From the NCBI GenBank assembly GCA_965652295.1, contig CBFGTS010000001.1:32001-96000 (forward strand): DNA of 64,000 nt, given 5' to 3'. Positions 20,012 through 58,115 of this stretch are shown here, piece after piece. Each line of letters starts with the position of its first letter. The stretch's first letter is position 1. The position numbers and the translations under genes are program-made. This DNA is from an uncultured Haloferula sp. (lineage in GTDB: Bacteria > Verrucomicrobiota > Verrucomicrobiia > Verrucomicrobiales > Akkermansiaceae). The notes under the pieces were generated by a model. It worked only from the letters and a program-made list of their open reading frames with translations. It was not told the DNA's origin and did no database searches.

Positions 20012-20091
20012 GGGTGGCGAACTTGAAAGGTCCTTTCGGGCTGCGATCCGTGATCTACCATCTGCCATCCACAATCTTCCATCTCCCATCA
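20012..20091 (-). repeat. Heptamer tract plus 38-bp core, right copy of the inverted repeat
   Basis: Seven NNNATCN heptamers at 20043-20091; core 20012-20049 is 34/38 identical to the reverse complement of 16939-16976. Confidence 0.8.
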
Positions 20092-46602: not shown

Positions 46603-49110
46603 ATGATGAAAAACCGCCTGCTCCTGTTCTGCGGAGGCGTGGCCCTATCCCTGCCACTCCAGGCCGCGGATGTGACGCTCACCGCCTCCGACCCGCTCGG
46701 CACCTCTTCTTTCGAAACCGCCGGCCTTTGGTCGAACGCCGCTCCTCCGTCGGCGGGCAACGCTTACTTCACCGGGGAATTCACCCTCCGCACGCCCACC
46801 ACCGCACCCTCCGGTCCGTTTGCAGGAGACTCACTCACCCTCGCACCGTCCACTTTCGATCTATCGAAAGCCTTCATGTTCAAGGGGCCCGGCTACACCG
46901 CCACGGTCAACAATTTCACCATCAATGGCGGCTACCTCCGCCACGCCGAGGGCACGGTCACGACCTTTGTTCTCGATGGAACCCTCACCATCGGCCCGAA
47001 CGGTGCCCGCACCAACCTCCAGGGCCCGGTGGAAATCGCATCGCTCATTTCCGGTTCGGGGACCCTCACGTTGGATGCCGTCGCCAACGCGGCCAACGTC
47101 CTCACCCTTTCCAACGCCGCGAACACCTACACCGGCGACATCGTCAACAACGGCCGCTTCACCTCCACCGGCCGGCTCAACTTCGTGATCGGTGCCAACG
47201 GTGTCACCAACTCCGTTTCCGGCACGGGGCCCGACACCACGATCAACGGCGAATTATTCATCGATGTCACGGGTGCCTCCAGCGACGATGGCGACAGTTG
47301 GTCGCTCGTCCCCGCCACCAACAAGACCATCTTCCTCTCCGATGTCACCGGCCCCGGCGGGGACTGGACGCTCGACGGCAGCACCTGGGTCGATCCTTCG
47401 AACACCTACCAGTTCTCCGAAACCAGCGGCACTCTCACCGTGATCCCCTCGGATGGAGCTTCGGACGACGACCACGACCTCTACACCAAGAACGAGGAAC
47501 TCGTCGCCGGCACCGATCCCGATGACGTCTTCTCCAGCCCCGACTCGGATGCCGATGGCCTCGCTGACGGCTTCGAGGTGTTCTATTTCGGCGACTATCA
47601 AACCGAAGATCTTTTCGTGATCATCGGTCGCCAGAGCGGCGGCGACGATGCTGACAGCGACGGTTACACCAACCTTGAGGAAGCCAACGCCGGACCGACC
47701 GATCCGACCGACGCCCTCTTCACCCCGCTCGACACCGATGGAGACGGGCTCATCGATGGCTGGGAGCTGGCTCACTTCGGGGATCTGGACGAGGCGGCTT
47801 CCGGCGATCCGGACGGCGACTCCGCCACCCATGCCGCCGAGCAGCTCGCGGGCTCCGATCCGAACAACATTGCCTCCACTCCAACCGACACCGATGGCGA
47901 TGGCCTCGCCGACGTCGAAGAGGTGTTCCAACCCTACGCCGCGGACTCGCAGACCCTGCACCTCTGGCACCTCGACGAGCTGGAAGCGACTTCCGTGAAC
48001 CCCGCGATCGATGCCGGCAGCGAGCCCGTTCCGCTGACTTCGCTCGCGGGTGGCGCGACGCTTTGGCAGTCGTCTCTACCGGGCTTCGGTACCGCACTTG
48101 ATCCCTCCGCCAACTTCGGCACTCCCAATGGCGGCATCCTTTCCGCGCTGCCTCTGGCCGCCGATGCCACCGATGATGTCACCATGACATTGGCCGGCCC
48201 CGATGGCGCCTTCACCTTCGAAGGCCTCGTCCGCCTCGACTTCGACCCGGCCGCGCCTCCCGGCACAGCGGAGATGCAGATCCTCAGCGGCGAGAATGAC
48301 GATGACGCCAACCGCATCTTCCAATTCCGGATTCTTCCGGGAACCGGCGGAGGATTGGACATCGAGTTCATCGCCATCAGCCTGAACGGCATCGGCACCG
48401 ACGTTTACTCCTTCCGGACTCCGTTGCCATCCGCCGCCGATCCGGACGCTCCGGTCCAGGGTGCCTGGTTCCATGCCGCCGTGACCTATGATGGCAACGA
48501 GGGTGGGCAGGACAGCCTGAAGATCTACTGGACCCGCATGGAGGAAAGCCGCACCCAGGCCCGCCTCCTGCTCAGCGATGTCCTCGGCGAGGACCTCACC
48601 GCCGGCACGCCGGATTTCGCGATCGGAAACGAAGGCCGTACCAACGGCGGTGCCTCCAACAACATGGTCGGCCTGGTGGATGAGGTGCGCATCAGCTCGG
48701 TGGCCCGCACCGCCACCGGTTTCTACTTCAGTGGCGGGGCCGACTACGATGACTGGGCCGGTGTCCAGGGTGTCACGGGCGGCCCGGAGGACGATGACGA
48801 TGGCGATGGCCTCAGCAATGACTTCGAGCGTCTCTTCGGGCTCGATGCGACCTCCGCGTCGTCGGTCAATCCCATCGTGATTTCTGTCGATCCCACCGCC
48901 GGGACGCTCAGCTACACCCGCCGTTCCATCAGTCTTACCGGTGCCGGCTATGAAATCTGGACGTCCACCGACCTCCAGGACTGGAGCCAGGACACCGGAG
49001 CGGATCAGACCGTCACCGGCACGACCGGAGAGGTGGAAACCGTTCAGATCACCCTGAGCCCCGCGCTGCTCACGACACCCAAGCGTTTCATCCAGATCCG
49101 CGTCAACTGA
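46603..49110 (+). CDS. Secreted surface protein: beta-helix-like N-terminus, DxDxDG Ca-binding repeats, LamG domain, verrucomicrobial C-terminal domain
   Basis: Signal peptide; ISGSGTLT..LTLSNAANTYTG; DSDADGLADGFE and DTDGDGLIDGWE repeats; TLHLWHLDE..VDEVRIS; YDDWA..DDDGDGLSN..KRFIQI. Confidence 0.85.
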   Translation: MMKNRLLLFCGGVALSLPLQAADVTLTASDPLGTSSFETAGLWSNAAPPSAGNAYFTGEFTLRTPTTAPSGPFAGDSLTLAPSTFDLSKAFMFKGPGYTATVNNFTINGGYLRHAEGTVTTFVLDGTLTIGPNGARTNLQGPVEIASLISGSGTLTLDAVANAANVLTLSNAANTYTGDIVNNGRFTSTGRLNFVIGANGVTNSVSGTGPDTTINGELFIDVTGASSDDGDSWSLVPATNKTIFLSDVTGPGGDWTLDGSTWVDPSNTYQFSETSGTLTVIPSDGASDDDHDLYTKNEELVAGTDPDDVFSSPDSDADGLADGFEVFYFGDYQTEDLFVIIGRQSGGDDADSDGYTNLEEANAGPTDPTDALFTPLDTDGDGLIDGWELAHFGDLDEAASGDPDGDSATHAAEQLAGSDPNNIASTPTDTDGDGLADVEEVFQPYAADSQTLHLWHLDELEATSVNPAIDAGSEPVPLTSLAGGATLWQSSLPGFGTALDPSANFGTPNGGILSALPLAADATDDVTMTLAGPDGAFTFEGLVRLDFDPAAPPGTAEMQILSGENDDDANRIFQFRILPGTGGGLDIEFIAISLNGIGTDVYSFRTPLPSAADPDAPVQGAWFHAAVTYDGNEGGQDSLKIYWTRMEESRTQARLLLSDVLGEDLTAGTPDFAIGNEGRTNGGASNNMVGLVDEVRISSVARTATGFYFSGGADYDDWAGVQGVTGGPEDDDDGDGLSNDFERLFGLDATSASSVNPIVISVDPTAGTLSYTRRSISLTGAGYEIWTSTDLQDWSQDTGADQTVTGTTGEVETVQITLSPALLTTPKRFIQIRVN

Positions 49111-49136
49111 CCGGACCGGTTCAACGACAGGTATCA

Positions 49137-49165
49137 AGAGGTGGGGAGGAGCCCTCCCTACCTCT
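49137..49165. terminator. Hairpin between convergent genes, overlapping the atzF stop
   Basis: AGAGGTGGGGAGG-agc-CCTCCCTACCTCT; no clear U tail. Confidence 0.4.
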
Positions 49166-50882
49166 GTGCCAACCAAGCTTTCCAGCCGCCGAAGGAGGTG
49201 ATCTCTTCGGCTCCCTCCGTGGCGCGAGGTTCGGCGATGAATCCCGGAACCTCGCTGCCATCTTCCAGCTGTACTTTGCCGATCCCGAGAGGACCGGGGA
49301 TCTTGGAGACGAAATGGCCGAAGGCTTCGGGCGCGAGCGACCAGACTTCCACCTCAATCGCAGCACCGGAGGCGTCATCGCGCATCAGGGCCGGGCGCGG
49401 TGGGATGCCGTCGGCCGCGGGGATCGCGAACATCCGATAGATGGGTGCGGTGCGGGTTCGTGAAACGAGCCGGGCACCCCGATCGCTGAGCTGCCAGTGC
49501 AGGGGCAGGCCTTCCAGGTGGGCACCGCAGACGACCACGGGAATCCCGCCCTCGGCAGAACGAGTCCAAGTTTCACCGGTGAAACGGGAGGCCATTTCCA
49601 AGAGCGCCGCGTCCGTCCCTGCCGGTGCGGCCAGCGTCACGCCCCACGGCACCAGGCCGTCCCGAGCCCGTCCCGCGGGCACCGCCACCGCGCAGAGGTC
49701 GAGCAGGTTCATGAAATTCGTGTAGCGGCCGAGCGTGGCATTCGTTTGGTACGGATCTTCCAGTAATTGCTCCACCCGGTAGAGGCATGGCGTGGTTGGC
49801 AGAAGCAGCGCATCCACCGTTTCCCACACGGCTTCCGCCATCCGGGCGAAGGCTTTCAGCTGGTCCTGAGCCTTGAAAGTCGCCGCCGCGTTCCAGCCCT
49901 GCGAGGCTTCGAGGATCTTACGCGTCACCGGAAACACCGAGTCCGGCTTGGCGGAGACAAAATCACCCACCGCCGCCCAGCGCTCCGCCACCCACGGACC
50001 TTCGTAGAGCAGCTTGGCGGCCTCGACGAAAGGCGTGAGATCGATCTCCACCAGTTCGAATCCCAGCGCGGCCAGCCTTTCGGTTGCCGCCACGAAGAGC
50101 CCGGGTGTATCGGGATCGTCTGCAAAATCGAGCACCTTGGGCACGCCGATGCGCTTGCCCAGAGCTCCTTCCACCCCGATCCGGCGCGAGTAGGGATCCT
50201 CCGCGTCGAAGGTGCCCGCCACATTCATGACCTCCGCCGCGTCCGCCACGGTGTTGGCGAAGACCGAAACGCAGTCGAGCGAGCGACACGCAGGCACCAC
50301 GCCGCGGGTGCTGAGGAGGCCTTTCGAGGGCTTCCAGCCGATCAACTCCTGGAACGCCGCCGGCACACGGCCCGAGCCCGCGGTATCGGTGCCGAGTGAA
50401 AACACACACAGCCCGGCCGCCACTGAGGACGCACTGCCGGAGCTGGAGCCGCCGGGCAGCCAGCCGGGTGCGACGGCGTTCAGCGCCACGCCATACGGCG
50501 AGCGGGTGCCCACCAGGCCGGTGGCGAACTGGTCGAGGTTGCCCTTGCCGATGGGGATCGCGCCGGCCTCGCGCAAGCGCCGTACCACTCCGGCGTCCGC
50601 TTCTGCGACGTAGGTGTAATCCGCACAGCCCGCGGTCGTCGGCCAGCCGGCGACATCGATGTTGTCCTTCACCACGAACGGCACGCCCCACAAGGGCAGC
50701 GTCCGATCCATGGCCTCGACCTCCGCGGCCATCGCCTTGAGTTGTTCCTGCGACGGCAGGAAAATGAAGGTCGCCGGATTGTCCCACGCCGTGATGCGGC
50801 TGGAAACCTCCTCCAACACATCCACCACCGTAGCGCCATCCGCGAAGCGCGCCCTCACCCAGCTCAACGTCATCCTTTCCAT
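49158..50882 (-). CDS. atzF: Allophanate hydrolase
   Basis: PFVVKDNIDVAG; NLDQFATGLVGTRSPYG; GGSSSGS; LGTDTAGSGRVPA; C-terminal VVCGAHLEGLPL domain. Confidence 0.96.
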   Translation of the reverse strand: MERMTLSWVRARFADGATVVDVLEEVSSRITAWDNPATFIFLPSQEQLKAMAAEVEAMDRTLPLWGVPFVVKDNIDVAGWPTTAGCADYTYVAEADAGVVRRLREAGAIPIGKGNLDQFATGLVGTRSPYGVALNAVAPGWLPGGSSSGSASSVAAGLCVFSLGTDTAGSGRVPAAFQELIGWKPSKGLLSTRGVVPACRSLDCVSVFANTVADAAEVMNVAGTFDAEDPYSRRIGVEGALGKRIGVPKVLDFADDPDTPGLFVAATERLAALGFELVEIDLTPFVEAAKLLYEGPWVAERWAAVGDFVSAKPDSVFPVTRKILEASQGWNAAATFKAQDQLKAFARMAEAVWETVDALLLPTTPCLYRVEQLLEDPYQTNATLGRYTNFMNLLDLCAVAVPAGRARDGLVPWGVTLAAPAGTDAALLEMASRFTGETWTRSAEGGIPVVVCGAHLEGLPLHWQLSDRGARLVSRTRTAPIYRMFAIPAADGIPPRPALMRDDASGAAIEVEVWSLAPEAFGHFVSKIPGPLGIGKVQLEDGSEVPGFIAEPRATEGAEEITSFGGWKAWLAQR

Positions 50883-50887
50883 GGCTT

Positions 50888-53800
50888 TCAATCGGCAATC
50901 ATCAAATCTTCCACCGGCAATTCCCTCAGGATCGCCACGACTTGTCCGGCACGGACGCTGCCGCCTTCGGCAACGAGCAGCTCGATGACCTCGACGGATG
51001 TCTCCGTCTCCACCGGCATTTCCATCTTCATCGCTTCGAGAATCATCACGCCCTTGCCGGCTCCGAGTTGCCCGCCCGCCGCGGCGAGGACCTTCCACAC
51101 GCTGCCCGTCACCGGGCTTTCGAGCGCGATGCAGCCGTGGGGGATGACGAGTTCGTCCTCATCCACGACTTCGGTTTCCACCGGTGCATCCATCACCAAT
51201 CCGGCCGCTTCCCAGCGCTCGCGTTCTTCCTGAAAGGCCCGGCGCTGGTCGGTGCGGAAGGCATCGATCTCCTCCGCGTGGTCATCGAGAAAGCGTTCGT
51301 AGTCCGCGAAACGGAACACGGTTTCCTCGATCTTCAGCTTGTGTCGACCCAGGGGCACGTCCTCGCGGAAACGCAGGAGTTCCTCCGCGCTCACCGGGTA
51401 GAACCGCAGTTGGTCGAAGAATCGCAGCAGCCAGGGCTCGGAGAAATCCTCCGTTTTCCGCCAGCGGTTCCACACCGGGATGGTGCGTCCGGTGAACTGG
51501 TATCCGCCGGGGCCCTCCATGCCGTAGATGCACAGGTAGGCGCCGCCGATGCCGACCGCGTTCTCCGGCGTCCAAGTACGGGCCGGGTTGTACTTCGTCG
51601 TCACCAGCCGGTGCCGCGGATCGAGCGGCGTGGCGACCGGCGCGCCGAGGTAGACGTCGCCCAGGCCCATCACGAGATAGGAGGCGTCGAAGAAAATACG
51701 ATAAACGTCATCGATCGAGTCGAGCCCGTTGATGCGGCGGATGAACTCCAGGTTGCTCGGGCACCATGGTGCGTCGGGCCGCACGCTCTGCATGTACTTG
51801 CGGATGGCTTCCTGCGTGCTCGGGTCGTCCCAGCTCAGCGGCAGGTGGACGATCCGGGTCGGCACCTCGATTTCCGCCAGCGGCGGCAGCGACCGGAGGC
51901 CTTCATCAATGATCGCCCACAAGGCGTCGCGAGCGATCACCCGCGGGTCGAAGTGAACCTGCAACGACCGGATCCCCGGCGTGAGATCGACGATCCCGTC
52001 GATGCCCTTTTCCTTCAGCCACTCATAAACGACGTGGACCTTGAAACGCAGTTTCAGATCGAGGTGATGCGGGCCGAACTCGATCAGGAAATAGCGGTCG
52101 CCCGCACGGCGGACGACGACGGCGTCGTCCTGCTCGCCGAAGCTGGCGAGGATTGCCGATTGAAGATCGAGGATTGCCGGCTGAGGAAGAGGTAGAGCGT
52201 CGAGCGTTCCCGATAGATAGGCATCCAGAGCCTGGCGTTGGTTTTCCGCCCAGGATTCATCGACCGGGACGAAGGTGATCTTGTCTCCCGGGTGGAGCTG
52301 GCCGAGTTTCCACAGCTCGGCCTCGACCACCACGCAGGGGCAGACGAAGCCGCCGAGGCTCGGGCCGTCGGGGCCGAGAATGACGGGCATGTCTCCGGTG
52401 AAATCCACCGCTCCGATGGCGTAGGCATTGTCGTGGAGGTTCGAGGGGTGGAGTCCCGCCTCACCGCCGTCCTTGCGCGCCCACTTCGGCTTCGGACCGA
52501 TCAGGCGGACGCCCGTCCGGGCCGAGTTGTAGTGCACCTCCCAGCTGGTGTCGAAGAAGGTCCCGATGTCTTCCGGTGTGAAAAAGTCCGGGGCACCATG
52601 CGGCCCGTACAAGACCCCGATCCGCCACTCGTTGCTGATCGGAATCTCCTTCCCACAATCTTCCATCTCCAATCTCCAATCGGCAATTCCGAGCACGTCT
52701 CCCGGCAGCAAAGCCCGGCCGAACGGCCCTCCGAACCGGCCGAGCGTGAAGGTCGAGGCGCTGCCGAGATAGAGGGGCGACTCGATCCCGCCGCTGACCG
52801 CGAGGTAGCAGCGCATGCCCGCACCTTCGATGCGACCCACTTTGACGACATCGCCCGCGGCGACATCGAAAGCTCCCTCCACGGCCTCACCGTTCAGCGT
52901 CACCTTCGCCGCCGCGCCGACCACCGCGACCTTCACCGGCGTGTTGAAGCGCAGCGTCGGGCCGGTCATGGTGATCTCCAGCGCAGGCGCTCCTTCCGGA
53001 TTGCCGACGAGGCGGTTGGCGAGGCGGAACGACAGGGAATCGAACGGCCCGCAGGGCGGGACGCCGACCTCCCAATAGCCGGTGCGGCCGGGGAAGTCCT
53101 GGACTGTCGTCATGGTGCCCGGCGATTGCACATCGATGGTGCGCGGCCGGTAGTCGAAACCCGCCATGTCACGCATCGCCACGCCGCCCGTAATGTACGG
53201 CGTCCACCGTACGACCTGCCGCAGGTAGCGGAGGTTGGTTTCAATGCCGGAAATTCGCGACTCGTCGAGCGCCTGCGTCAGTTTCCTCACGGCCGAGTCA
53301 CGGTCGTCGGCATGGACCATCACCTTGCACAGCAGCGGATCGTAAAACGGGCTGACTTTGGTGCCGGGCCGCACCCAGCCGTCGCAGCGGGTCCATTGCG
53401 GGAAATCGGCCTCGGTTAGGAGTCCGGCGCTGGGGCGGAAATTCTGGTTCGGGTCTTCGGCGTAGACGCGGGCCTGGATCGCGCAGCCCTGCGGCGCCGG
53501 TACGACCCCGGGCATGACCCACTGTGGGTCGAGCGCCAGCCGGATCATCCATTCGACGAGATCGACGCCGGTGACCATCTCCGTGACCCCGTGCTCGACC
53601 TGAAGGCGGGTGTTCACTTCCAGAAAAAAGAAGTCGCTGCGATCGGCGTCGTAGATGAATTCAACCGTGCCGGCGGAGCGGTAGTTCACGCTTTCGCCGA
53701 GCTGCACCGCCGCGGCGTGAAGTGCCGCGCGGGTTTCGTCGGTGAGGCCCGGCGCGGGCGTTTCCTCGAAGACCTTCTGATTGCGGCGCTGCACCGAGCA

Positions 53801-54508
53801 ATCGCGCTCACCGAGCGCGAGCACACGGCCGTTGCCATCGCCGAAAATCTGCACCTCGACGTGGCGTCCGCGTTCGATGAAACGTTCGACGAACACCCCG
53901 CCCGAGCCGAAACTGCGTTCGCTGAGCCGCACCACGCTTTCGAACTCGCGGCGCAGCTCCTCCGGATCGCGGCAGACCTTCATGCCGATTCCGCCGCCGC
54001 CCGCCGTGCTTTTGAGCATGACCGGGAACCCGATCTCCGCCGCCGCCGTGACCGCCGCTTCGGCGTTCTCCAACAAGTCTGTCCCCGGAACCAGTGGCAC
54101 GCCCGCTTCACCTGCCAGACGACGTGCCTCATGCTTCAGTCCGAAGGCGATGATCTGTTCCGGCGTCGGCCCAAGCCACTTCACGCCGGCTTCCTCGCAC
54201 ATCCGGGCGAAGTCGGTGTTTTCGCTGAGCAGACCGTATCCAGGGAAGACCGCGGCCGCACCGGCTTCGCGGGCGATCTCGATCAGACGGTCCTTGAGAA
54301 GATAACTCTCCGAAACCGGCCCCGGCCCGAGTCGATGGGACTCGTCTGCGAGATCGACGTGGGGTGAGGCGCTATCGGGATCCGAGTAGACCGCCACGGC
54401 CTCCATGCCGAGAGCGTGTATCGTGCGGATGGCCCGAGCGGCGATCTCGCCGCGGTTGGCGATGAGGATCTTCGATTTTCGATTGATGATTGACGATTGA
54501 GACATCAT
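50888..54508 (-). CDS. uca: Urea/guanidine carboxylase (biotin-dependent)
   Basis: LIANRGEIA biotin carboxylase; FLEVNTRLQVEH; HPSNLHDNAY..DFTGD..DGPSLGGF; TKYNPARTWT; LEAMKME biotin site. Confidence 0.97.
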   Translation of the reverse strand: MMSQSSIINRKSKILIANRGEIAARAIRTIHALGMEAVAVYSDPDSASPHVDLADESHRLGPGPVSESYLLKDRLIEIAREAGAAAVFPGYGLLSENTDFARMCEEAGVKWLGPTPEQIIAFGLKHEARRLAGEAGVPLVPGTDLLENAEAAVTAAAEIGFPVMLKSTAGGGGIGMKVCRDPEELRREFESVVRLSERSFGSGGVFVERFIERGRHVEVQIFGDGNGRVLALGERDCSVQRRNQKVFEETPAPGLTDETRAALHAAAVQLGESVNYRSAGTVEFIYDADRSDFFFLEVNTRLQVEHGVTEMVTGVDLVEWMIRLALDPQWVMPGVVPAPQGCAIQARVYAEDPNQNFRPSAGLLTEADFPQWTRCDGWVRPGTKVSPFYDPLLCKVMVHADDRDSAVRKLTQALDESRISGIETNLRYLRQVVRWTPYITGGVAMRDMAGFDYRPRTIDVQSPGTMTTVQDFPGRTGYWEVGVPPCGPFDSLSFRLANRLVGNPEGAPALEITMTGPTLRFNTPVKVAVVGAAAKVTLNGEAVEGAFDVAAGDVVKVGRIEGAGMRCYLAVSGGIESPLYLGSASTFTLGRFGGPFGRALLPGDVLGIADWRLEMEDCGKEIPISNEWRIGVLYGPHGAPDFFTPEDIGTFFDTSWEVHYNSARTGVRLIGPKPKWARKDGGEAGLHPSNLHDNAYAIGAVDFTGDMPVILGPDGPSLGGFVCPCVVVEAELWKLGQLHPGDKITFVPVDESWAENQRQALDAYLSGTLDALPLPQPAILDLQSAILASFGEQDDAVVVRRAGDRYFLIEFGPHHLDLKLRFKVHVVYEWLKEKGIDGIVDLTPGIRSLQVHFDPRVIARDALWAIIDEGLRSLPPLAEIEVPTRIVHLPLSWDDPSTQEAIRKYMQSVRPDAPWCPSNLEFIRRINGLDSIDDVYRIFFDASYLVMGLGDVYLGAPVATPLDPRHRLVTTKYNPARTWTPENAVGIGGAYLCIYGMEGPGGYQFTGRTIPVWNRWRKTEDFSEPWLLRFFDQLRFYPVSAEELLRFREDVPLGRHKLKIEETVFRFADYERFLDDHAEEIDAFRTDQRRAFQEERERWEAAGLVMDAPVETEVVDEDELVIPHGCIALESPVTGSVWKVLAAAGGQLGAGKGVMILEAMKMEMPVETETSVEVIELLVAEGGSVRAGQVVAILRELPVEDLMIAD

Positions 54509-54898
54509 GGCGCTTTGCGCGTTATTCAGAGTTCTTCTTTGATGCGACCATGATGGCGCAGATTTCGTCGGCTTCCTGCAGTAGCGGTTGGACTCGTTCG
54601 GCAGGCAGGAGTTCGGCTTCGATGATCATTTCCAGCCAATAGGCAGACTCGTCGGCTTCTTCGATCACGATCCCAAGCTTGGCTTGAAACTCGGCGGTGG
54701 ATTGTCCGCGACAGGCAGCACGATAGTTCGCTCCCACCGACGACCCGGAGCGAGCGAGTTGCATCGCGATGGTTTTTCCGACGTAGGACTTGGGCAATGC
54801 CTCGACCACGCGAAATGCCCGCAGCCCGAACTGCTTGGTCCGCTTCTTGAGTTCTTCCGGTGTCATGTCTTCCAATCGTCAATCTTCAATCGAAAATC
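54474..54898. repeat. 26-bp heptamer-built inverted repeats enclosing the four-helix-bundle gene
   Basis: 54474-54499 GATTTTCGATTGATGATTGACGATTG versus reverse complement of 54873-54898 GATTTTCGATTGAAGATTGACGATTG (25/26). Confidence 0.92.
54522..54866 (-). CDS. Four-helix-bundle protein (23S rRNA intervening-sequence protein/bAvd-like family)
   Basis: ELKKRTKQFGLR..LPK..QLARSGSSVGANYRAACR.QSTAEF.AKLGIV.EEADES.YWLE..EADEI family signature. Confidence 0.93.
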   Translation of the reverse strand: MTPEELKKRTKQFGLRAFRVVEALPKSYVGKTIAMQLARSGSSVGANYRAACRGQSTAEFQAKLGIVIEEADESAYWLEMIIEAELLPAERVQPLLQEADEICAIMVASKKNSE

Positions 54899-55518
54899 AG
54901 AGCTTCCACCGGTGTCGGGTTCCAGCCGTTGCAGGGGTTGTTCAATTGTGGACAGTTCGAGATCAGGCACACGACGTCCATCGCCGCTTTCATTTCCACA
55001 TATCTTCCCGGAGCCGAGATTCCGTCGGCGAAGGAAAGCTGGCCGTCGGGGGTGACGGGGACGTTCATGAAGAGGTTGATGTTGCAGGTGAGGTCGCGCT
55101 TGGTCAGCCCGCCGCGCCATTCCTGTGCGCCGCGGATGAAGCTGTCGCGGCAGGCGTGCATGCATTCCTTGTCGTGGGCGTAGCGCATGGTGTTCGACTC
55201 GCGCGAGCAGGCACCGCCAAGCGTGTCGTGGCGGCCGCAGGTGTCGGCGGTGATCTCGAGCAGCACGTGGCCCTCGGTGCTCATCAGTCGGGTGCCGGTG
55301 GTGAGGTAGAGCGCCTGCTGGGCCTGGATGGTGCGGTCGGCGCTGTAGCGGTCGGTCGGGTCGGCGGCGCTGTAGAAAAGCGTGTCCGCGGCCTGGTTGC
55401 CTTCGAGGTCGAGGATGCGCAGCGTCTGTCCGGCCTTGATTTCATGCGTCCACCAATCGCCGGCGGGGATGATTTCCCGGTAAACGGCGGCGGCGGGATC
55501 GAGCGGGCTCTCTTTCAT
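54886..55518 (-). CDS. cgdB: Urea carboxylase-associated protein 2 (DUF1989), carboxyguanidine deiminase subunit
   Basis: [56 protein letters not shown]. Confidence 0.9.
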
Positions 55519-56234
55519 CAGAAACGAAGGGCGTGATAGGTTTCGTTGTTTTCCCAGGCTCGGAGGTTTTCCGGCCGGACGGTGAGGCTCGGGTCCCCGG
55601 CGGCGGGTGCCTCGCCGGAGAGGACCTCCAGCTTCACCCGGCGCGGATGGTAGGTGGGATCGGGATCGAGCGGGTGCTGGCAGGTGTTGAGGACGACCAA
55701 GGTGTCGATCTCGAAACGCAGCTCGATGTGATCGCCGGGCTTCGAGTGATCCGGGACGAAGGACAATGCGCCCTCGTCATTGCTGACGACCTTGCTGAAC
55801 CAGTTGAGGTTCGGCACGAGGTCCTTCTTGCCGAGGCCCCACTTGGCGAGTTCGATCAGGAAACAGTCGCGCGCGTTGCGATACCAGTCGTTGCGGGCGT
55901 CCTGGAAACTACGTTCGCCGTACTTCGACGTCACCAGCGCGGCATCCGAGTGGCCGCAGACCGTATCGTGCCAGCCGACGCTGTCAGACACGATCGAGGC
56001 GAGCAGCCGGCCCATGTCCGAGTGCAGGCAATAGGGGGCGCGGAGGTAGAAAATGTGCTGGCCCTTGAGTGTGTCCGGCATGTTGTAGCGCTCGTGCCGC
56101 TCCAGCGCGTTGTAGAGCAGCATCCCGACGTTCGCGCCGCCTTCGAGGTCGGTCAGACGCAGGCGTTTGCCACGGGAGATCACGGCCGACCACATGCCGG
56201 CGCCTTCGAGGGTTCGTTCGAGGAGGGTCTTCAT
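55518..56234 (-). CDS. cgdA: Urea carboxylase-associated protein 1 (DUF1989), carboxyguanidine deiminase subunit
   Basis: [50 protein letters not shown]. Confidence 0.9.
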
Positions 56235-56267
56235 TTCTTTCAATCGGCAATCTCCAATCGTGAATCT

Positions 56268-56726
56268 TCAGTCCATCATCCGCTTCGCGTGGAGTGGCGG
56301 AATGAGGTGCGGGGTGAGGGTGAGCTGGGCGGTTTTGACGCCCTTGCAGGTGACGAGTTTGTTGGCGATGTCGCGCAGGGTTTTCGCCGGGCCCTGCATG
56401 AGGATGACCTCGAGCATGTGGTCGTCCTCCAGCAGCACGTGCTGGGAGGAAATGACCTCGGCGATGTGCTCGCGGAAGATGCGCGAGAGGTCGCGCAGGA
56501 GCGTGCTTTTCGACTCGTCGTAAACCAGCGTCAGCGTGCCGGCCATGACCTCGGTGCCGATGCGGCTGAGGTGCTGGGCGGCGTGCTGGTGGATCATTTC
56601 GGCGACCGCCTGCGAGCGGCTGTCGAAACCGCGGGCGACCACCAGCCGGTCGAGGAACTGGTAGGTTTCCTCGGGCATCGACACGGTCACCCGCTTCACT
56701 CCTTCGTTGGTCTCGTCGTTCGGCAT
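56268..56726 (-). CDS. NikR-like CopG/ribbon-helix-helix transcriptional regulator
   Basis: KRVTVSMP..LD..V..RGF.SRSQA (RHH); GTLTLVYD and LEVILMQG (NikR C-terminal ACT-like domain). Confidence 0.88.
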   Translation of the reverse strand: MPNDETNEGVKRVTVSMPEETYQFLDRLVVARGFDSRSQAVAEMIHQHAAQHLSRIGTEVMAGTLTLVYDESKSTLLRDLSRIFREHIAEVISSQHVLLEDDHMLEVILMQGPAKTLRDIANKLVTCKGVKTAQLTLTPHLIPPLHAKRMMD

Positions 56727-56756
56727 CGCCGACCGCTTACAGCACATCGGGGGCCA

Positions 56757-56784
56757 GTATGAAGAAATTTTTCATTCGTCACAC
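56757..56784. promoter_or_regulatory. NikR-type operator upstream of the carboxylase operon
   Basis: GTATGA-N16-TCACAC, one mismatch from the E. coli NikR operator GTATGA-N16-TCATAC; AT-rich spacer; 30 bp before the regulator ATG. Confidence 0.8.
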
Positions 56785-56924
56785 TTTGTGCAGGGAAAAA
56801 GAAGCGTGGGACCCCGGGGCAAATCATGAAAGACCGTAGAAATTCGCCAAAACCCGGGCCGCGGAGCTTCCTGACACCGGCAAGCGGTTCCACGTCCGGT
56901 TTCAGGAGTGAGAGGGCGGTGTCG

Positions 56925-58115
56925 TCATCTCTTGGCTGCGGTTCTGAGGCTCTCGACGCGTGCGCGGTAGGCGAGCCCGAACCGGTCCTGATGGGTGAGG
57001 ACGTTCCATTTCATGGCGTCGTCCTTGGATTCCGACTCGGAAAGCCGAAGCCATTCGCGCTCCTGTCGAGGACGCAGCACCTCGGAGCGACCGACGATGA
57101 CGCGCACCTGCTTGTCCGGAGCCGGGGTCACGTTCAGCGGAAGGATGGCTTCGGTCCGGGATTCCGGCAGAATCCAGAACACCCGCAGCCCCGGAGCTTC
57201 GAAGTAGCTGTGCCACCAGGTTTGCACCATCGCCTCGGCCTCGGACGGGAGAAGTCCTTGGGCCGTGAGGTGGGAGGTCAGTTCTTGATAGAGTTCGGTA
57301 TCGAAGCCGGTTGGGCGTGAATCGAGCTTCGACTGTGGAATTTCAGCGATGGCATTTTCTCCGAGCGGAGCGTCGTGCTGGAACCAGCGGGTGGTGCCGT
57401 CCGCCTCTCTTTCATAAACCAGAAGATAGGGAATCGCGCCTCCAGTCCGGTTCTCAAGCGTGAGCGTTTCGGAATTGTCGATGGTTGTGTGGAGTCCGGG
57501 CACGAAATGTCCGACGCCCCGGTAGAAGAGGAATCCCTCCGTGGTTCCGTCTTCGGACTGGACGACATTGGCTTCGGGGATCCGCGCACGGGTCCATTGC
57601 AGCAAGTCATCGGGTTTGAAAAGAACGGTCTGACGGCTGGCTTTGGAGTTCAGCACCTCGATATCCCACTCGATGGAACCGGTGTAGGGCTTGGAGAAAT
57701 CGAGAAGCTCCAAAGAGAGAGGGTCTTCGGAAGGAGGTGGCGCGAATGTTTCTCCACCGCTTCTTTCCGGATACCACTGGCTGATCGTGCCACCGTTGAA
57801 GCCGACTTTCACATGGGCGCGAAAGCCTTCCTCTGAGTGAAAATAAATGACCGGCGTCTCCATTTTCACCGTGACGCTCCGGACCGGACGGGCTGTCTTT
57901 TTCATGAGGAACACGCCTGGGTTCGGCAGAGGCGCGAACCCGGGGTGATGGCGGACATAGGCGGGCAGCGCTTCTTCTTCCCGTTCGAGACCGGAGAGGA
58001 GCGTGCCGTCGGAACCCGACACAGTGGTGAAGGTGCCCCACTCGTGGAGGTCGTAGGCTGACGATGCGGACAAGAGGGTGAATGTCGCGATGCTGGCGAG
58101 ATGGATCGTTTTCAT
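56925..58115 (-). CDS. Exported conserved hypothetical protein (HEWGTFT / ETPVIYF family)
   Basis: Signal peptide; LHEWGTFTTV; VKMETPVIYF; FLFYRGVG; GL..SEA.AM..TW. Confidence 0.75.
   Translation of the reverse strand: MKTIHLASIATFTLLSASSAYDLHEWGTFTTVSGSDGTLLSGLEREEEALPAYVRHHPGFAPLPNPGVFLMKKTARPVRSVTVKMETPVIYFHSEEGFRAHVKVGFNGGTISQWYPERSGGETFAPPPSEDPLSLELLDFSKPYTGSIEWDIEVLNSKASRQTVLFKPDDLLQWTRARIPEANVVQSEDGTTEGFLFYRGVGHFVPGLHTTIDNSETLTLENRTGGAIPYLLVYEREADGTTRWFQHDAPLGENAIAEIPQSKLDSRPTGFDTELYQELTSHLTAQGLLPSEAEAMVQTWWHSYFEAPGLRVFWILPESRTEAILPLNVTPAPDKQVRVIVGRSEVLRPRQEREWLRLSESESKDDAMKWNVLTHQDRFGLAYRARVESLRTAAKR

Follow-up and report, generated by a model that had tools for sequence, protein, structure and literature searches.

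The urea-carboxylase-type biotin carboxylase that hosts the two tracts is encoded on the minus strand at 50888..54508 of the window, the whole 64,000-nucleotide stretch of an uncultured Haloferula sp. genome that was analysed. The protein of 1206 amino acids matches the family profile TIGR02712 (urea carboxylase) with 1776 bits, but it is possibly a guanidine carboxylase instead; its Pfam domains are CT_A_B (residues 481-748) and CT_C_D (residues 799-1018). A small four-helix-bundle gene of family PF05635 ('23S rRNA intervening sequence protein'; 54522..54863, minus strand) separates the second DUF1989 gene from the carboxylase. Heptamer arrays occur at three in-frame sites of the carboxylase and also fill gene junctions. 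A short minus-strand array at 50889..50906 supplies the last carboxylase codons and the TGA stop, lies 5 nt before the ATG of the allophanate hydrolase, and shares the 16-mer GATTGCCGATTGAAAG with the minus-strand intergenic array at 56241..56266, located between the stop codon of a NikR-like gene and the ATG of the first DUF1989 gene. Unit numbers at the carboxylase/allophanate-hydrolase junction, counted by eye in 7 relatives, range from 2 to 10. A role of the arrays as NikR operators was rejected, since they are found genome-wide and in many phyla.

Tract 1 (52656..52689, minus strand) is an in-frame array with the GATT strand as sense strand, comprising five units (AATTGCC GATTGGA GATTGGA GATGGAA GATTGTG). 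Its core 28-mer (window positions 52662-52689, reverse-complemented) is GAATTGCCGATTGGAGATTGGAGATGGA. The translation, IADWRLEME(DC), covers residues 608-618 inside CT_A_B and falls in a variable loop flanked by GDVLG and W.IGVLYGPHG. Tract 2 (52147..52187, minus strand) is likewise in frame and has the AATC strand as sense; its core 28-mer (52150-52177, reverse-complemented), GCAATCCTCGATCTTCAATCGGCAATCC, is translated as AILDLQSAIL (residues 778-787; PAILDLQSAIL for the whole array), a stretch of the linker that joins CT_A_B to CT_C_D. On the plus strand this tract shows four units in GATT phase (GATTGCC GATTGAA GATCGAG GATTGCC). It contains a 21-nt tandem duplication (52147-52166 / 52168-52187, 85%), and its last, 3'-most unit encodes a semi-conserved S-A/P-I-L. 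Aligned antiparallel, the two tracts form 21 Watson-Crick and 3 G-U pairs with 4 mismatches over 28 positions, and a repeat search returned them as a 23-nt inverted repeat, 83% complementary, with 490 nt between the arms. The sequence-only reading had described just such a complementary, in-frame pair, placed in linkers on either side of the HPSNLHD..DFTGD stretch, and this observation was confirmed.

Linker conservation was assessed in an alignment of 25 carboxylase orthologues and by comparison with the K. lactis urea carboxylase (3va7). Both sites are hypervariable and unconserved among the orthologues and are gapped or of low identity relative to the K. lactis enzyme, and linker length is nearly constant at both sites in relatives with or without arrays. 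The 490 nt enclosed by the tracts are conserved catalytic sequence, part of CT_A_B, in 25/25 orthologues. AlphaFold2 modelling of residues 455-1030 from a 22-row alignment yielded a low-quality model (mean pLDDT 61.6, with values under 50 in the conserved catalytic stretch) that was not relied on; in it, both tracts fall in coil (model residues 155-172, pLDDT 64-74, and 313-331, pLDDT 71-80).

Both tracts are arrays of one period-7 repeat, (GATTGNN)n. The window contains 21 occurrences of the pattern GATTGNNGATTG as compared to 3.8 expected, and the genome contains 39, as compared to 2-9 at other spacings. GATT triples number 47 in the genome at period 7 versus 0-1 at periods 4-12, and a relaxed genome scan detected 30 arrays at period 7 versus 0-3 at control periods. 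In 5 relatives, (GATTGNN)x3 was present 15-212 times, with controls at 0. The arrays measure 25-40 nt, vary in length and are not self-complementary. Six of the 30 were confirmed inside genes, five of these with the reverse (AATC) strand as sense, and several arrays abut start codons; array-to-start-codon distances determined automatically are confounded by the TTG inside the units and were not used for counts. Weak array-like matches in a DegT aminotransferase and a molybdopterin oxidoreductase were also excluded from the counts. Five of the 30 arrays fall in this 5.4-kb locus, a crowding in one operon that could hint at locus-specific use. Comparing individual arrays, tract 1 matches an array on contig C26 over 23 nt (96%, 22/23), and its 3' half is identical over 18/18 nt to positions 20069-20086 of the window, 32 kb away, where a minus-strand intergenic GATGGNN/GATTGNN array (20060..20090) directly follows a stop codon. 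Tract 2 matches a C26 array over 25 nt (92%). Each tract is thus nearer to remote arrays than to the complement of its partner, and tract 1 resembles a patchwork of arrays located elsewhere.

Two of the five locus arrays flank the neighbouring PF05635 gene as the inverted arms of its cassette. The left arm (54873..54898, minus strand; GATTTTC GATTGAA GATTGAC GATTGGA) ends 4 nt before the ATG of the cassette gene, and the right arm (54474..54499, minus strand, AATC strand as sense) is translated as the carboxylase N-terminal extension SQSSIINRKSK; the 26-nt arms are 96% complementary. The genome has three PF05635 genes, each flanked on both sides by heptamer arrays in inverted orientation; the other two pairs of arms measure 44 nt (95%) and 25 nt (84%), and the spacings among the three are 373-506 nt. 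The tract pair in the carboxylase matches these cassettes in polarity (GATT arm 5', AATC arm 3') and in its spacing of ~490 nt, but no PF05635 ORF lies between the tracts. A limited full-text search found no literature link between heptamer repeats and the intervening sequence (IVS) protein.

Among the orthologues, designated by L numbers, the tract 1 site (loop 1) shows turnover. L001 and L002 have the array in forward orientation there, L005, L008 and L009 in reverse, and according to a quick tree its orientation flips between near-sister genomes. In at least five orthologues (L003, L004, L006, L007, L011, L023), loop 1 instead harbours in-frame palindromes; a hairpin core, GGACAGGAGTGTCC, is present at this position in L004, L006, L007 and L023. 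These four genomes carry 43, 24, 20 and 8 copies of GGACAGGAGTGTCC, respectively, with controls at 0-2, whereas this genome has none. A tract-2 array without a forward tract-1 array was present in L003, L008 and L009, and the unit type at tract 2 differs by relative, being GCAATC (A-I-L) in L001, L002, L003, L008 and L009 and CCCATC (P-I-L) in L004, L005, L007 and L011. In-frame heptamer arrays were also found inside MutS, aconitase and AlaRS. In 24 of 26 aconitase and 23 of 30 AlaRS orthologues, the array is absent and the site has no extra residues, the net gain where it is present being 24 nt and 18 nt, respectively. The MutS site is occupied by several different heptamer families among 30 relatives.

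Folding of naked RNA in contexts of 641 nt and 1041 nt around the tracts predicted an ensemble dominated in both cases by the tract1-tract2 helix (22.5 expected pairs, p up to 0.999). The predicted duplex energy of -39.6 kcal/mol ranks 126th among 12380 window pairs in the gene, within the top 1%; when 60-nt windows were compared, 12% of background pairs in the gene were as stable as the tract pair. Long-range pairing was predicted in only 2 of 22 orthologues, namely in this genome (33.5 expected pairs) and in its nearest relative L002 (31.8), whereas the next best values were 12.5, 11.1 and 7.8 and the remaining 17 reached at most 5.6. In L005, L008 and L009, the tract-1 array is oriented like tract 2 and therefore no pairing is possible. 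Of the 38 duplex pairs compared between L001 and L002, 12 are broken at the same positions and 1 shows a compensatory change. Loop 1 of L001 is predicted to form 0.0 local hairpin pairs, and no Rfam family matched in window positions 49000-58000 at E up to 1. Among the sequencing runs searched, none of RNA contained this stretch, and just two metagenomic runs shared 0.05 of its words. According to these predictions, a naked-RNA duplex could form here and in L002 were the region untranslated. The sequence-only reading is supported in part: both tracts lie in hypervariable linkers, where repeat DNA is tolerated and the frame is kept, but selection for an RNA duplex finds no support, since orientation and pairing are not conserved. 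The accompanying idea that the two tracts were inserted as a directed pair finds no support either, given that more relatives have a tract-2 array than have tract 1 in forward orientation and that tract 1 turns over between near-sisters.

The tracts belong to the known class of heptameric bacterial repeats, and their reading as an RNA device does not hold up. They probably represent repeat DNA that is tolerated in permissive linkers, with the pairing arising automatically, unselected and without any need for a role of an mRNA duplex. The repeat (GATTGNN)n is dispersed through genome and genus, also fills gene junctions and forms the arms of PF05635 cassettes, and two oppositely oriented, translated copies sit in the permissive linkers flanking carboxyltransferase subdomain B. 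In this explanation, they persist there because the linkers are permissive and hypervariable and the reading frame is kept. The arrays would be neutral or nearly neutral passengers, which may arrive or be reshaped through slippage together with recombination or gene conversion involving other arrays. As one periodic sequence present in opposite orientations is bound to be self-complementary between copies, the complementarity of the tracts looks like a by-product of their orientation.

The tolerated-repeat explanation has to be weighed against the possibility that the arrays grew in place from linker codons, through replication slippage and templated homogenisation of adjacent 7-nt segments, with the likeness among arrays reflecting the same mutational bias everywhere. 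We regard this as a serious but rather doubtful possibility. It accounts well for the 21-nt tandem duplication within tract 2 and for linker lengths that stay near constant with and without arrays, and the latter fit in-place remodelling better than simple insertion. Moreover, the 3'-most unit of tract 2 coincides with the semi-conserved S-A/P-I-L and its type tracks the local codon, so that part of this array may be locally grown, not imported. It is harder to reconcile with tract 1, whose 18-mer recurs exactly in the intergenic array 32 kb off and which has 22/23 nt in common with an array on another contig, with the flips of loop 1 orientation among near-sisters and the unrelated dispersed palindromes at the same site, or with the net gains in aconitase and AlaRS. 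Plain coincidence of two unrelated linker sequences hardly deserves credence. The complementarity by itself is not significant, given that at least 21 matches in 28 nt within 50-1000 nt arose in 37 of 100 sequences obtained by shuffling the synonymous codons of the gene, and the gene contains 47 inverted pairs of at least 12 nt, three of them longer than the tract pair. However, both tracts follow the GATT phase, at period 7, of a repeat family over-represented ~10- to 50-fold, and they have in common the 11-mer ATTGCCGATTG, with 6 window matches (at most 1 mismatch) compared to 1.4 expected; a pure chance origin is contradicted by these family statistics.

Two further alternatives would make the pairing itself meaningful. 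That the tracts act here and in L002 as a long-range mRNA helix with a function, for example as a site for RNase III or as a stability switch coupled to translation, is improbable, even though the helix dominates the predictions in both sequence contexts and in L002, ranks in the top 1% by energy and resembles the PF05635 cassette arms in geometry. Its restriction to 2 of 22 orthologues, the ratio of 12 broken pairs to 1 compensatory change, the equal stability of 12% of 60-nt background pairs and the lack of an Rfam match in the region searched all count against it. In addition, ribosomes would unwind a helix whose strands lie 490 nt apart inside a translated ORF. A joint origin of both arrays in a single cassette-like event, as two arms placed around subdomain B, is more improbable still. 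Polarity and spacing are as in the three PF05635 cassettes, and wherever two arrays of the genome lie within 1 kb of each other (4 pairs), GATT precedes AATC. In contrast, the conserved catalytic 490 nt in 25/25 orthologues imply that nothing was inserted between the arms, L003, L008 and L009 have the tract-2 array without the forward tract-1 array, and the quick tree suggests that the arrays arose on different branches. The arms are also only 83% complementary as compared to 84-96% in the cassettes, and each is nearer to other arrays. A further reading, in which arrays and PF05635 cassettes constitute an active copy-and-replace system that repeatedly targets a few permissive sites in essential genes across the genus, and opposite arrays in one gene yield a cassette-like, RNase III-cleavable mRNA stem tying decay to translation density, strikes us as unlikely.

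Taking the tracts as tolerated repeats, conserved enzymes such as the carboxylase, MutS, aconitase and AlaRS carry translated heptamer repeats, of a kind common in bacteria, at a few permissive loops, where different repeat families replace one another between close relatives. The array sites thus mark enzyme loops tolerating arbitrary sequence. For annotation, the lesson is to treat unusual peptides like QSSIFNLQS or IADWRLEME as read-through of repeats. The genus is also suited to resolving by comparison how heptamer arrays originate, by slippage or by copying between loci.

Several described repeat classes resemble the arrays in part. Like heptameric SSR or STRR repeats, they consist of head-to-tail 7-nt units, are over-represented at period 7 only and vary in unit number between orthologous sites. 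The sections of Rehm et al. (2015; PMC4692102) used here describe GGGNATC-type heptamer repeats (Xanthomonas GGGAATC, Nostoc GGGGATT) that are genome-wide, variable in unit number and frequently arranged in convergent (inverted) pairs, and mention the STRR heptamers of Calothrix/Anabaena. Tandem 7-nt units and an ATC/GAT core are common to both, and the Nostoc (GGGGATT)n is the same string as the GATTGGG arrays of this genome. The GGGNATC-type repeats are reported there to be mostly non-coding, to lie near ORF ends and to be under-represented within coding sequence; those sections contain no description of enzyme linkers with translated copies. The variable three bases of our arrays are mixed and mostly not G-rich, making a G-quadruplex reading inapplicable to the two tracts. 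TAACTGA direct repeats, as presented in the parts of MacGregor (2015; PMC4679880) used here, occur in marine Beggiatoaceae, some Cyanobacteria and Bacteroidetes, with 10 sets inside ORFs in reverse orientation and a post-transcriptional regulator proposed. The arrays at 54873, 56241 and 50889 similarly end a few nt before start codons, and the AATC-sense orientation of 5/6 intragenic arrays parallels the reverse-oriented intra-ORF sets; the unit differs, however, and those parts do not describe how repeats at a single protein loop turn over within a genus. With RPE, the arrays have in common that short repeats lie in frame at reused permissive sites of unrelated, conserved housekeeping genes without destroying them. 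Whereas RPE is a palindromic element of ~100-150 bp with a conserved encoded peptide, the arrays are 25-40-nt tandems that have neither such a peptide nor fixed length or ends, and are therefore SSR-like, not MITE-like. In 23S rRNA intervening sequences, a PF05635 ORF lies between inverted repeats. The carboxylase tracts are reminiscent of these as inverted arms ~370-510 nt apart that are able to form a long stem, but the segment between them is conserved enzyme sequence, whereas the neighbouring PF05635 cassette has exactly the intervening-sequence form, with heptamer arms.

The two complementary in-frame tracts of the carboxylase gene 'uca' each consist of tandem 7-nt units that share the core GATT(G). 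Tract 1, the first of the two 28-mers (52662-52689, reverse complement), encodes IADWRLEME(DC), residues 608-618, with AATTGCC GATTGGA GATTGGA GATGGAA GATTGTG as its sense sequence. Tract 2, the second 28-mer (52150-52177, reverse complement), encodes AILDLQSAIL, residues 778-787, and reads GATTGCC GATTGAA GATCGAG GATTGCC on the antisense strand. The sequence-only reading of these complementary 28-mers was correct to the letter in positions, peptides and pairing: laid antiparallel, the tracts form 21 Watson-Crick and 3 G-U pairs with 4 mismatches, and a repeat search lists them as a 23-nt pair of arms, 83% complementary and 490 nt apart. When the codons of the gene were shuffled synonymously, at least 21 matches arose in some 28-nt window pair in 37 of 100 shuffles; as bare complementarity, the match is no more than chance. 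The gene contains 47 inverted pairs of at least 12 nt, three of which exceed the tract pair in length, and the duplex, at -39.6 kcal/mol, comes 126th in energy among 12380 pairs of 40-nt windows lying 300-700 nt apart in the same gene. Partition-function folding in 641-nt and 1041-nt contexts predicted the tract 1/tract 2 helix to be dominant, the expected number of pairs being 22.5 and the probability of single pairs reaching 0.999, and these predictions favour a duplex in the naked RNA.

The heptamer family extends well beyond the two tracts. Allowing one mismatch, GATTGNNGATTG occurs 21 times in the window as compared to 3.8 expected, and its exact pattern is found 39 times in the 4.37-Mb genome, where other spacings gave 2-9 and the two-period spacing 26. 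Three GATT words at period 7 recur 47 times in the genome, as compared to 0-1 at other periods between 4 and 12, and a scan relaxed to 4 units with at most 2 mismatches returned 30 arrays, where control periods gave 0-3. The 11-mer ATTGCCGATTG, which is the perfect core of the predicted tract duplex, is at the same time a two-unit word of the family, present 6 times in the window at up to one mismatch (1.4 expected). Over 23 nt, tract 1 differs from an array on contig C26 at a single position, and it has an exact 18-mer in common with an intergenic array at 20069-20086; tract 2 is 92% identical to another C26 array over 25 nt. By these matches, the tracts are closer to other arrays than to each other. 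The repeat is abundant across the genus, exact three-unit matches numbering 15 to 212 in five relatives (controls, 0), and at least 123 stretches, spread over many phyla, hold four-unit GATTGNN arrays.

The host gene is a minus-strand open reading frame (54508..50888) whose 1206-aa product matches the NCBIfam urea carboxylase model TIGR02712 over its full length (1776 bits, cut-off 1304), with the Pfam domain order Biotin_carb_N, CPSase_L_D2, Biotin_carb_C, CT_A_B (481-748), CT_C_D (799-1018) and Biotin_lipoyl. Its operon (49158-56747) comprises a NikR-like regulator, two DUF1989 genes, the carboxylase and allophanate hydrolase. Because the guanidine carboxylase pathway, as outlined in PMC12186494, consists of the same gene set, 'uca' may be a guanidine carboxylase. 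Five of the 30 genome arrays fall within 5.4 kb of this operon sequence, namely the two tracts, an array (56241-56266) in the spacer that separates the NikR-like gene from the first DUF1989 gene, and two 26-nt arms (54873-54898 and 54474-54499; 96% complementary). A short sixth array (50888-50906) supplies the last codons of the carboxylase (..LMIAD) and its TGA stop; at this junction relatives stop 0-7 residues earlier or later, inside arrays of 2-10 units.

The two arms enclose a PF05635 gene ('23S rRNA intervening sequence protein', 113 aa, a four-helix bundle) within 54474-54898, with the second DUF1989 gene on one side and the carboxylase on the other. In most relatives the carboxylase begins with MN-ILIANRG; here the right arm has taken the place of this start, and its translation reads MMSQSSIINRKSK. 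Inverted heptamer arrays, 373-506 nt apart and of a different unit type in each cassette, flank all three PF05635 genes that the genome has. The arms of the other two (L040 on contig C28 and L041 on contig C7) consist of GTTTTCA/GTGTTCA and GATGGNN units, and the C7 cassette lies between apparent pheS and pheT genes, recognised by the end sequences of these genes.

In-frame heptamer arrays are general in the source genome. Pfam confirmed them within three further genes: MutS (C5:22958-22996, QSTIFNLQSSIFEH, in frame inside domain III), aconitase (C10:76943-76981, KSTIGNQESEIF, in frame) and AlaRS (C17:92539-92570, KSEISNLQSSI, in frame after the catalytic core and before the SAD domain). The aconitase site reads SKDG-VYYPD in 24 of 26 orthologues, whereas a heptamer array lengthens it by 24 nt in the source genome and, likewise, in one non-sister genome. 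Among 30 AlaRS sequences, 23 have no extra residues at the array site; in the source genome and three others a 13-residue array takes the place of 7 residues, and the other three differ otherwise. The aconitase and AlaRS arrays recur in non-sister genomes at the same site and size. At the MutS site, a hot spot, at least three heptamer families and, in about a dozen of 30 relatives, a short plain linker were counted by eye. In some relatives (L216-L221) the MutS loop holds 40-60 extra residues from (GGGGTCA)n, CACTNNN heptamers and short palindromes. Aconitase has a second hypervariable segment (residues ~430-480 of the source protein; L166-L191) that differs among relatives by up to ~50 residues in length and splits several search matches. 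In the nearest relative, the AlaRS match (L237) shows unusual divergence near the array site (73% over that segment, with a different loop), which sets it apart from the carboxylase and MutS of that relative. In five of the six confirmed intragenic arrays the AATC strand is the sense strand, tract 1 being the exception; on the GATT strand, none of the 5 tract-1 units holds a stop triplet as compared to 35 of 129 units of other arrays, numbers too few to test.

The alignment covered the carboxylase orthologues of 24 further genomes from the genus and order of the source. Both tracts lie in unconserved segments with nearly invariant flanks, the sequence-only reading being right about their placement in linkers, and a comparison with the solved K. 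lactis enzyme (3va7) gave the same picture; a semi-conserved S-A/P-I-L overlaps only the last unit of tract 2. The content of loop 1, the tract-1 site, varies: the nearest relative (L002) carries a forward array like that of the source genome, L005, L008 and L009 carry arrays in opposite orientation, L003, L004, L006, L007, L011 and L023 carry in-frame palindromes with TAAGGAG...CTCCTTA-like ends, and the remaining relatives lack an obvious repeat. The palindrome core GGACAGGAGTGTCC, a hairpin, is present in loop 1 of L004, L006, L007 and L023, is dispersed in 43, 24, 20 and 8 copies in their respective genomes (controls, 0-2), and was not found in a search of the source genome. In a rapidly built maximum-likelihood tree (with the loops masked, without the partial genes L023-L025 and with SH-aLRT as the sole support measure), L005 with its reverse array is sister to L007 with its palindrome, and L003 and L008 also belong to that tight clade; loop 1 has therefore been rewritten several times. 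The tract-2 array is commoner than the forward tract-1 array, being of CAATC type in L001 (the source gene), L002, L003, L008 and L009 and of CCATC type in L004, L005, L007 and L011. Upstream of the carboxylase start, the spacer of L003, L005, L008 and of L004, L007, L011 holds REP-like hairpins of the GCGGACTTTAGTCCGC or GCGGAATTCATTCCGC types in paired copies, at the position of the PF05635 cassette in the source genome.

Folding of ~650-nt contexts from 22 orthologues gave 33.5 expected pairs between loop 1 and linker 2, the tract-2 site, in the source genome and 31.8 in L002; the next three gave 12.5, 11.1 and 7.8, and the other 17 at most 5.6. In L005, L008 and L013 the two sites form the worst-pairing window pair of the whole gene. 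DNA identity between the source genome and L002 is 67% in loop 1 and 83.5% over the whole gene. At the same L002 positions, 21 of the 38 source duplex pairs stand as they are, 4 still pair after a change on one side, 1 shows a compensatory change and 12 no longer pair. The L002 tracts pair in a different register, a shift that is open to any two oppositely oriented periodic arrays. In these predictions the pairing is high in the source genome and L002 and does not survive in the other relatives.

The proposal of a selected coding-region RNA duplex is therefore not supported, given strong predicted pairing in no more than 2 of 22 orthologues and 12 broken pairs against one compensatory change. 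Nor is directed insertion of the tracts in pairs, since loop 1 varies in content and orientation among relatives and the tract-2 array is found more widely than forward tract 1. In their behaviour the arrays resemble long simple-sequence repeats, with variable unit number (2 to 10 among relatives at the carboxylase 3' junction), common convergent pairs and positions by ORF ends, and the mosaic matches of tract 1 suggest copying between arrays. The constant linker length and the agreement of the tract-2 unit type with the codons suggest homogenisation of the linker sequence in place, a rival route that seems to us less likely than not. By copying or homogenisation alike, the complementarity of the tracts requires no selection.

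The tracts belong to a known class of repeats and are of modest interest as such. The GGGNATC heptamers of Xanthomonas and the (GGGGATT)n arrays of Nostoc were characterised by Rehm et al. (2015, PMC4692102): most lie outside coding sequence, convergent pairs are frequent, and the majority are transcribed. The account of TAACTGA arrays by MacGregor (2015, PMC4679880) places them directly upstream of start codons, with 10 sets within ORFs in reverse orientation, and the Rickettsia RPEs, covered in a review (PMC10969869), are the classic case of repeats inserted in frame.
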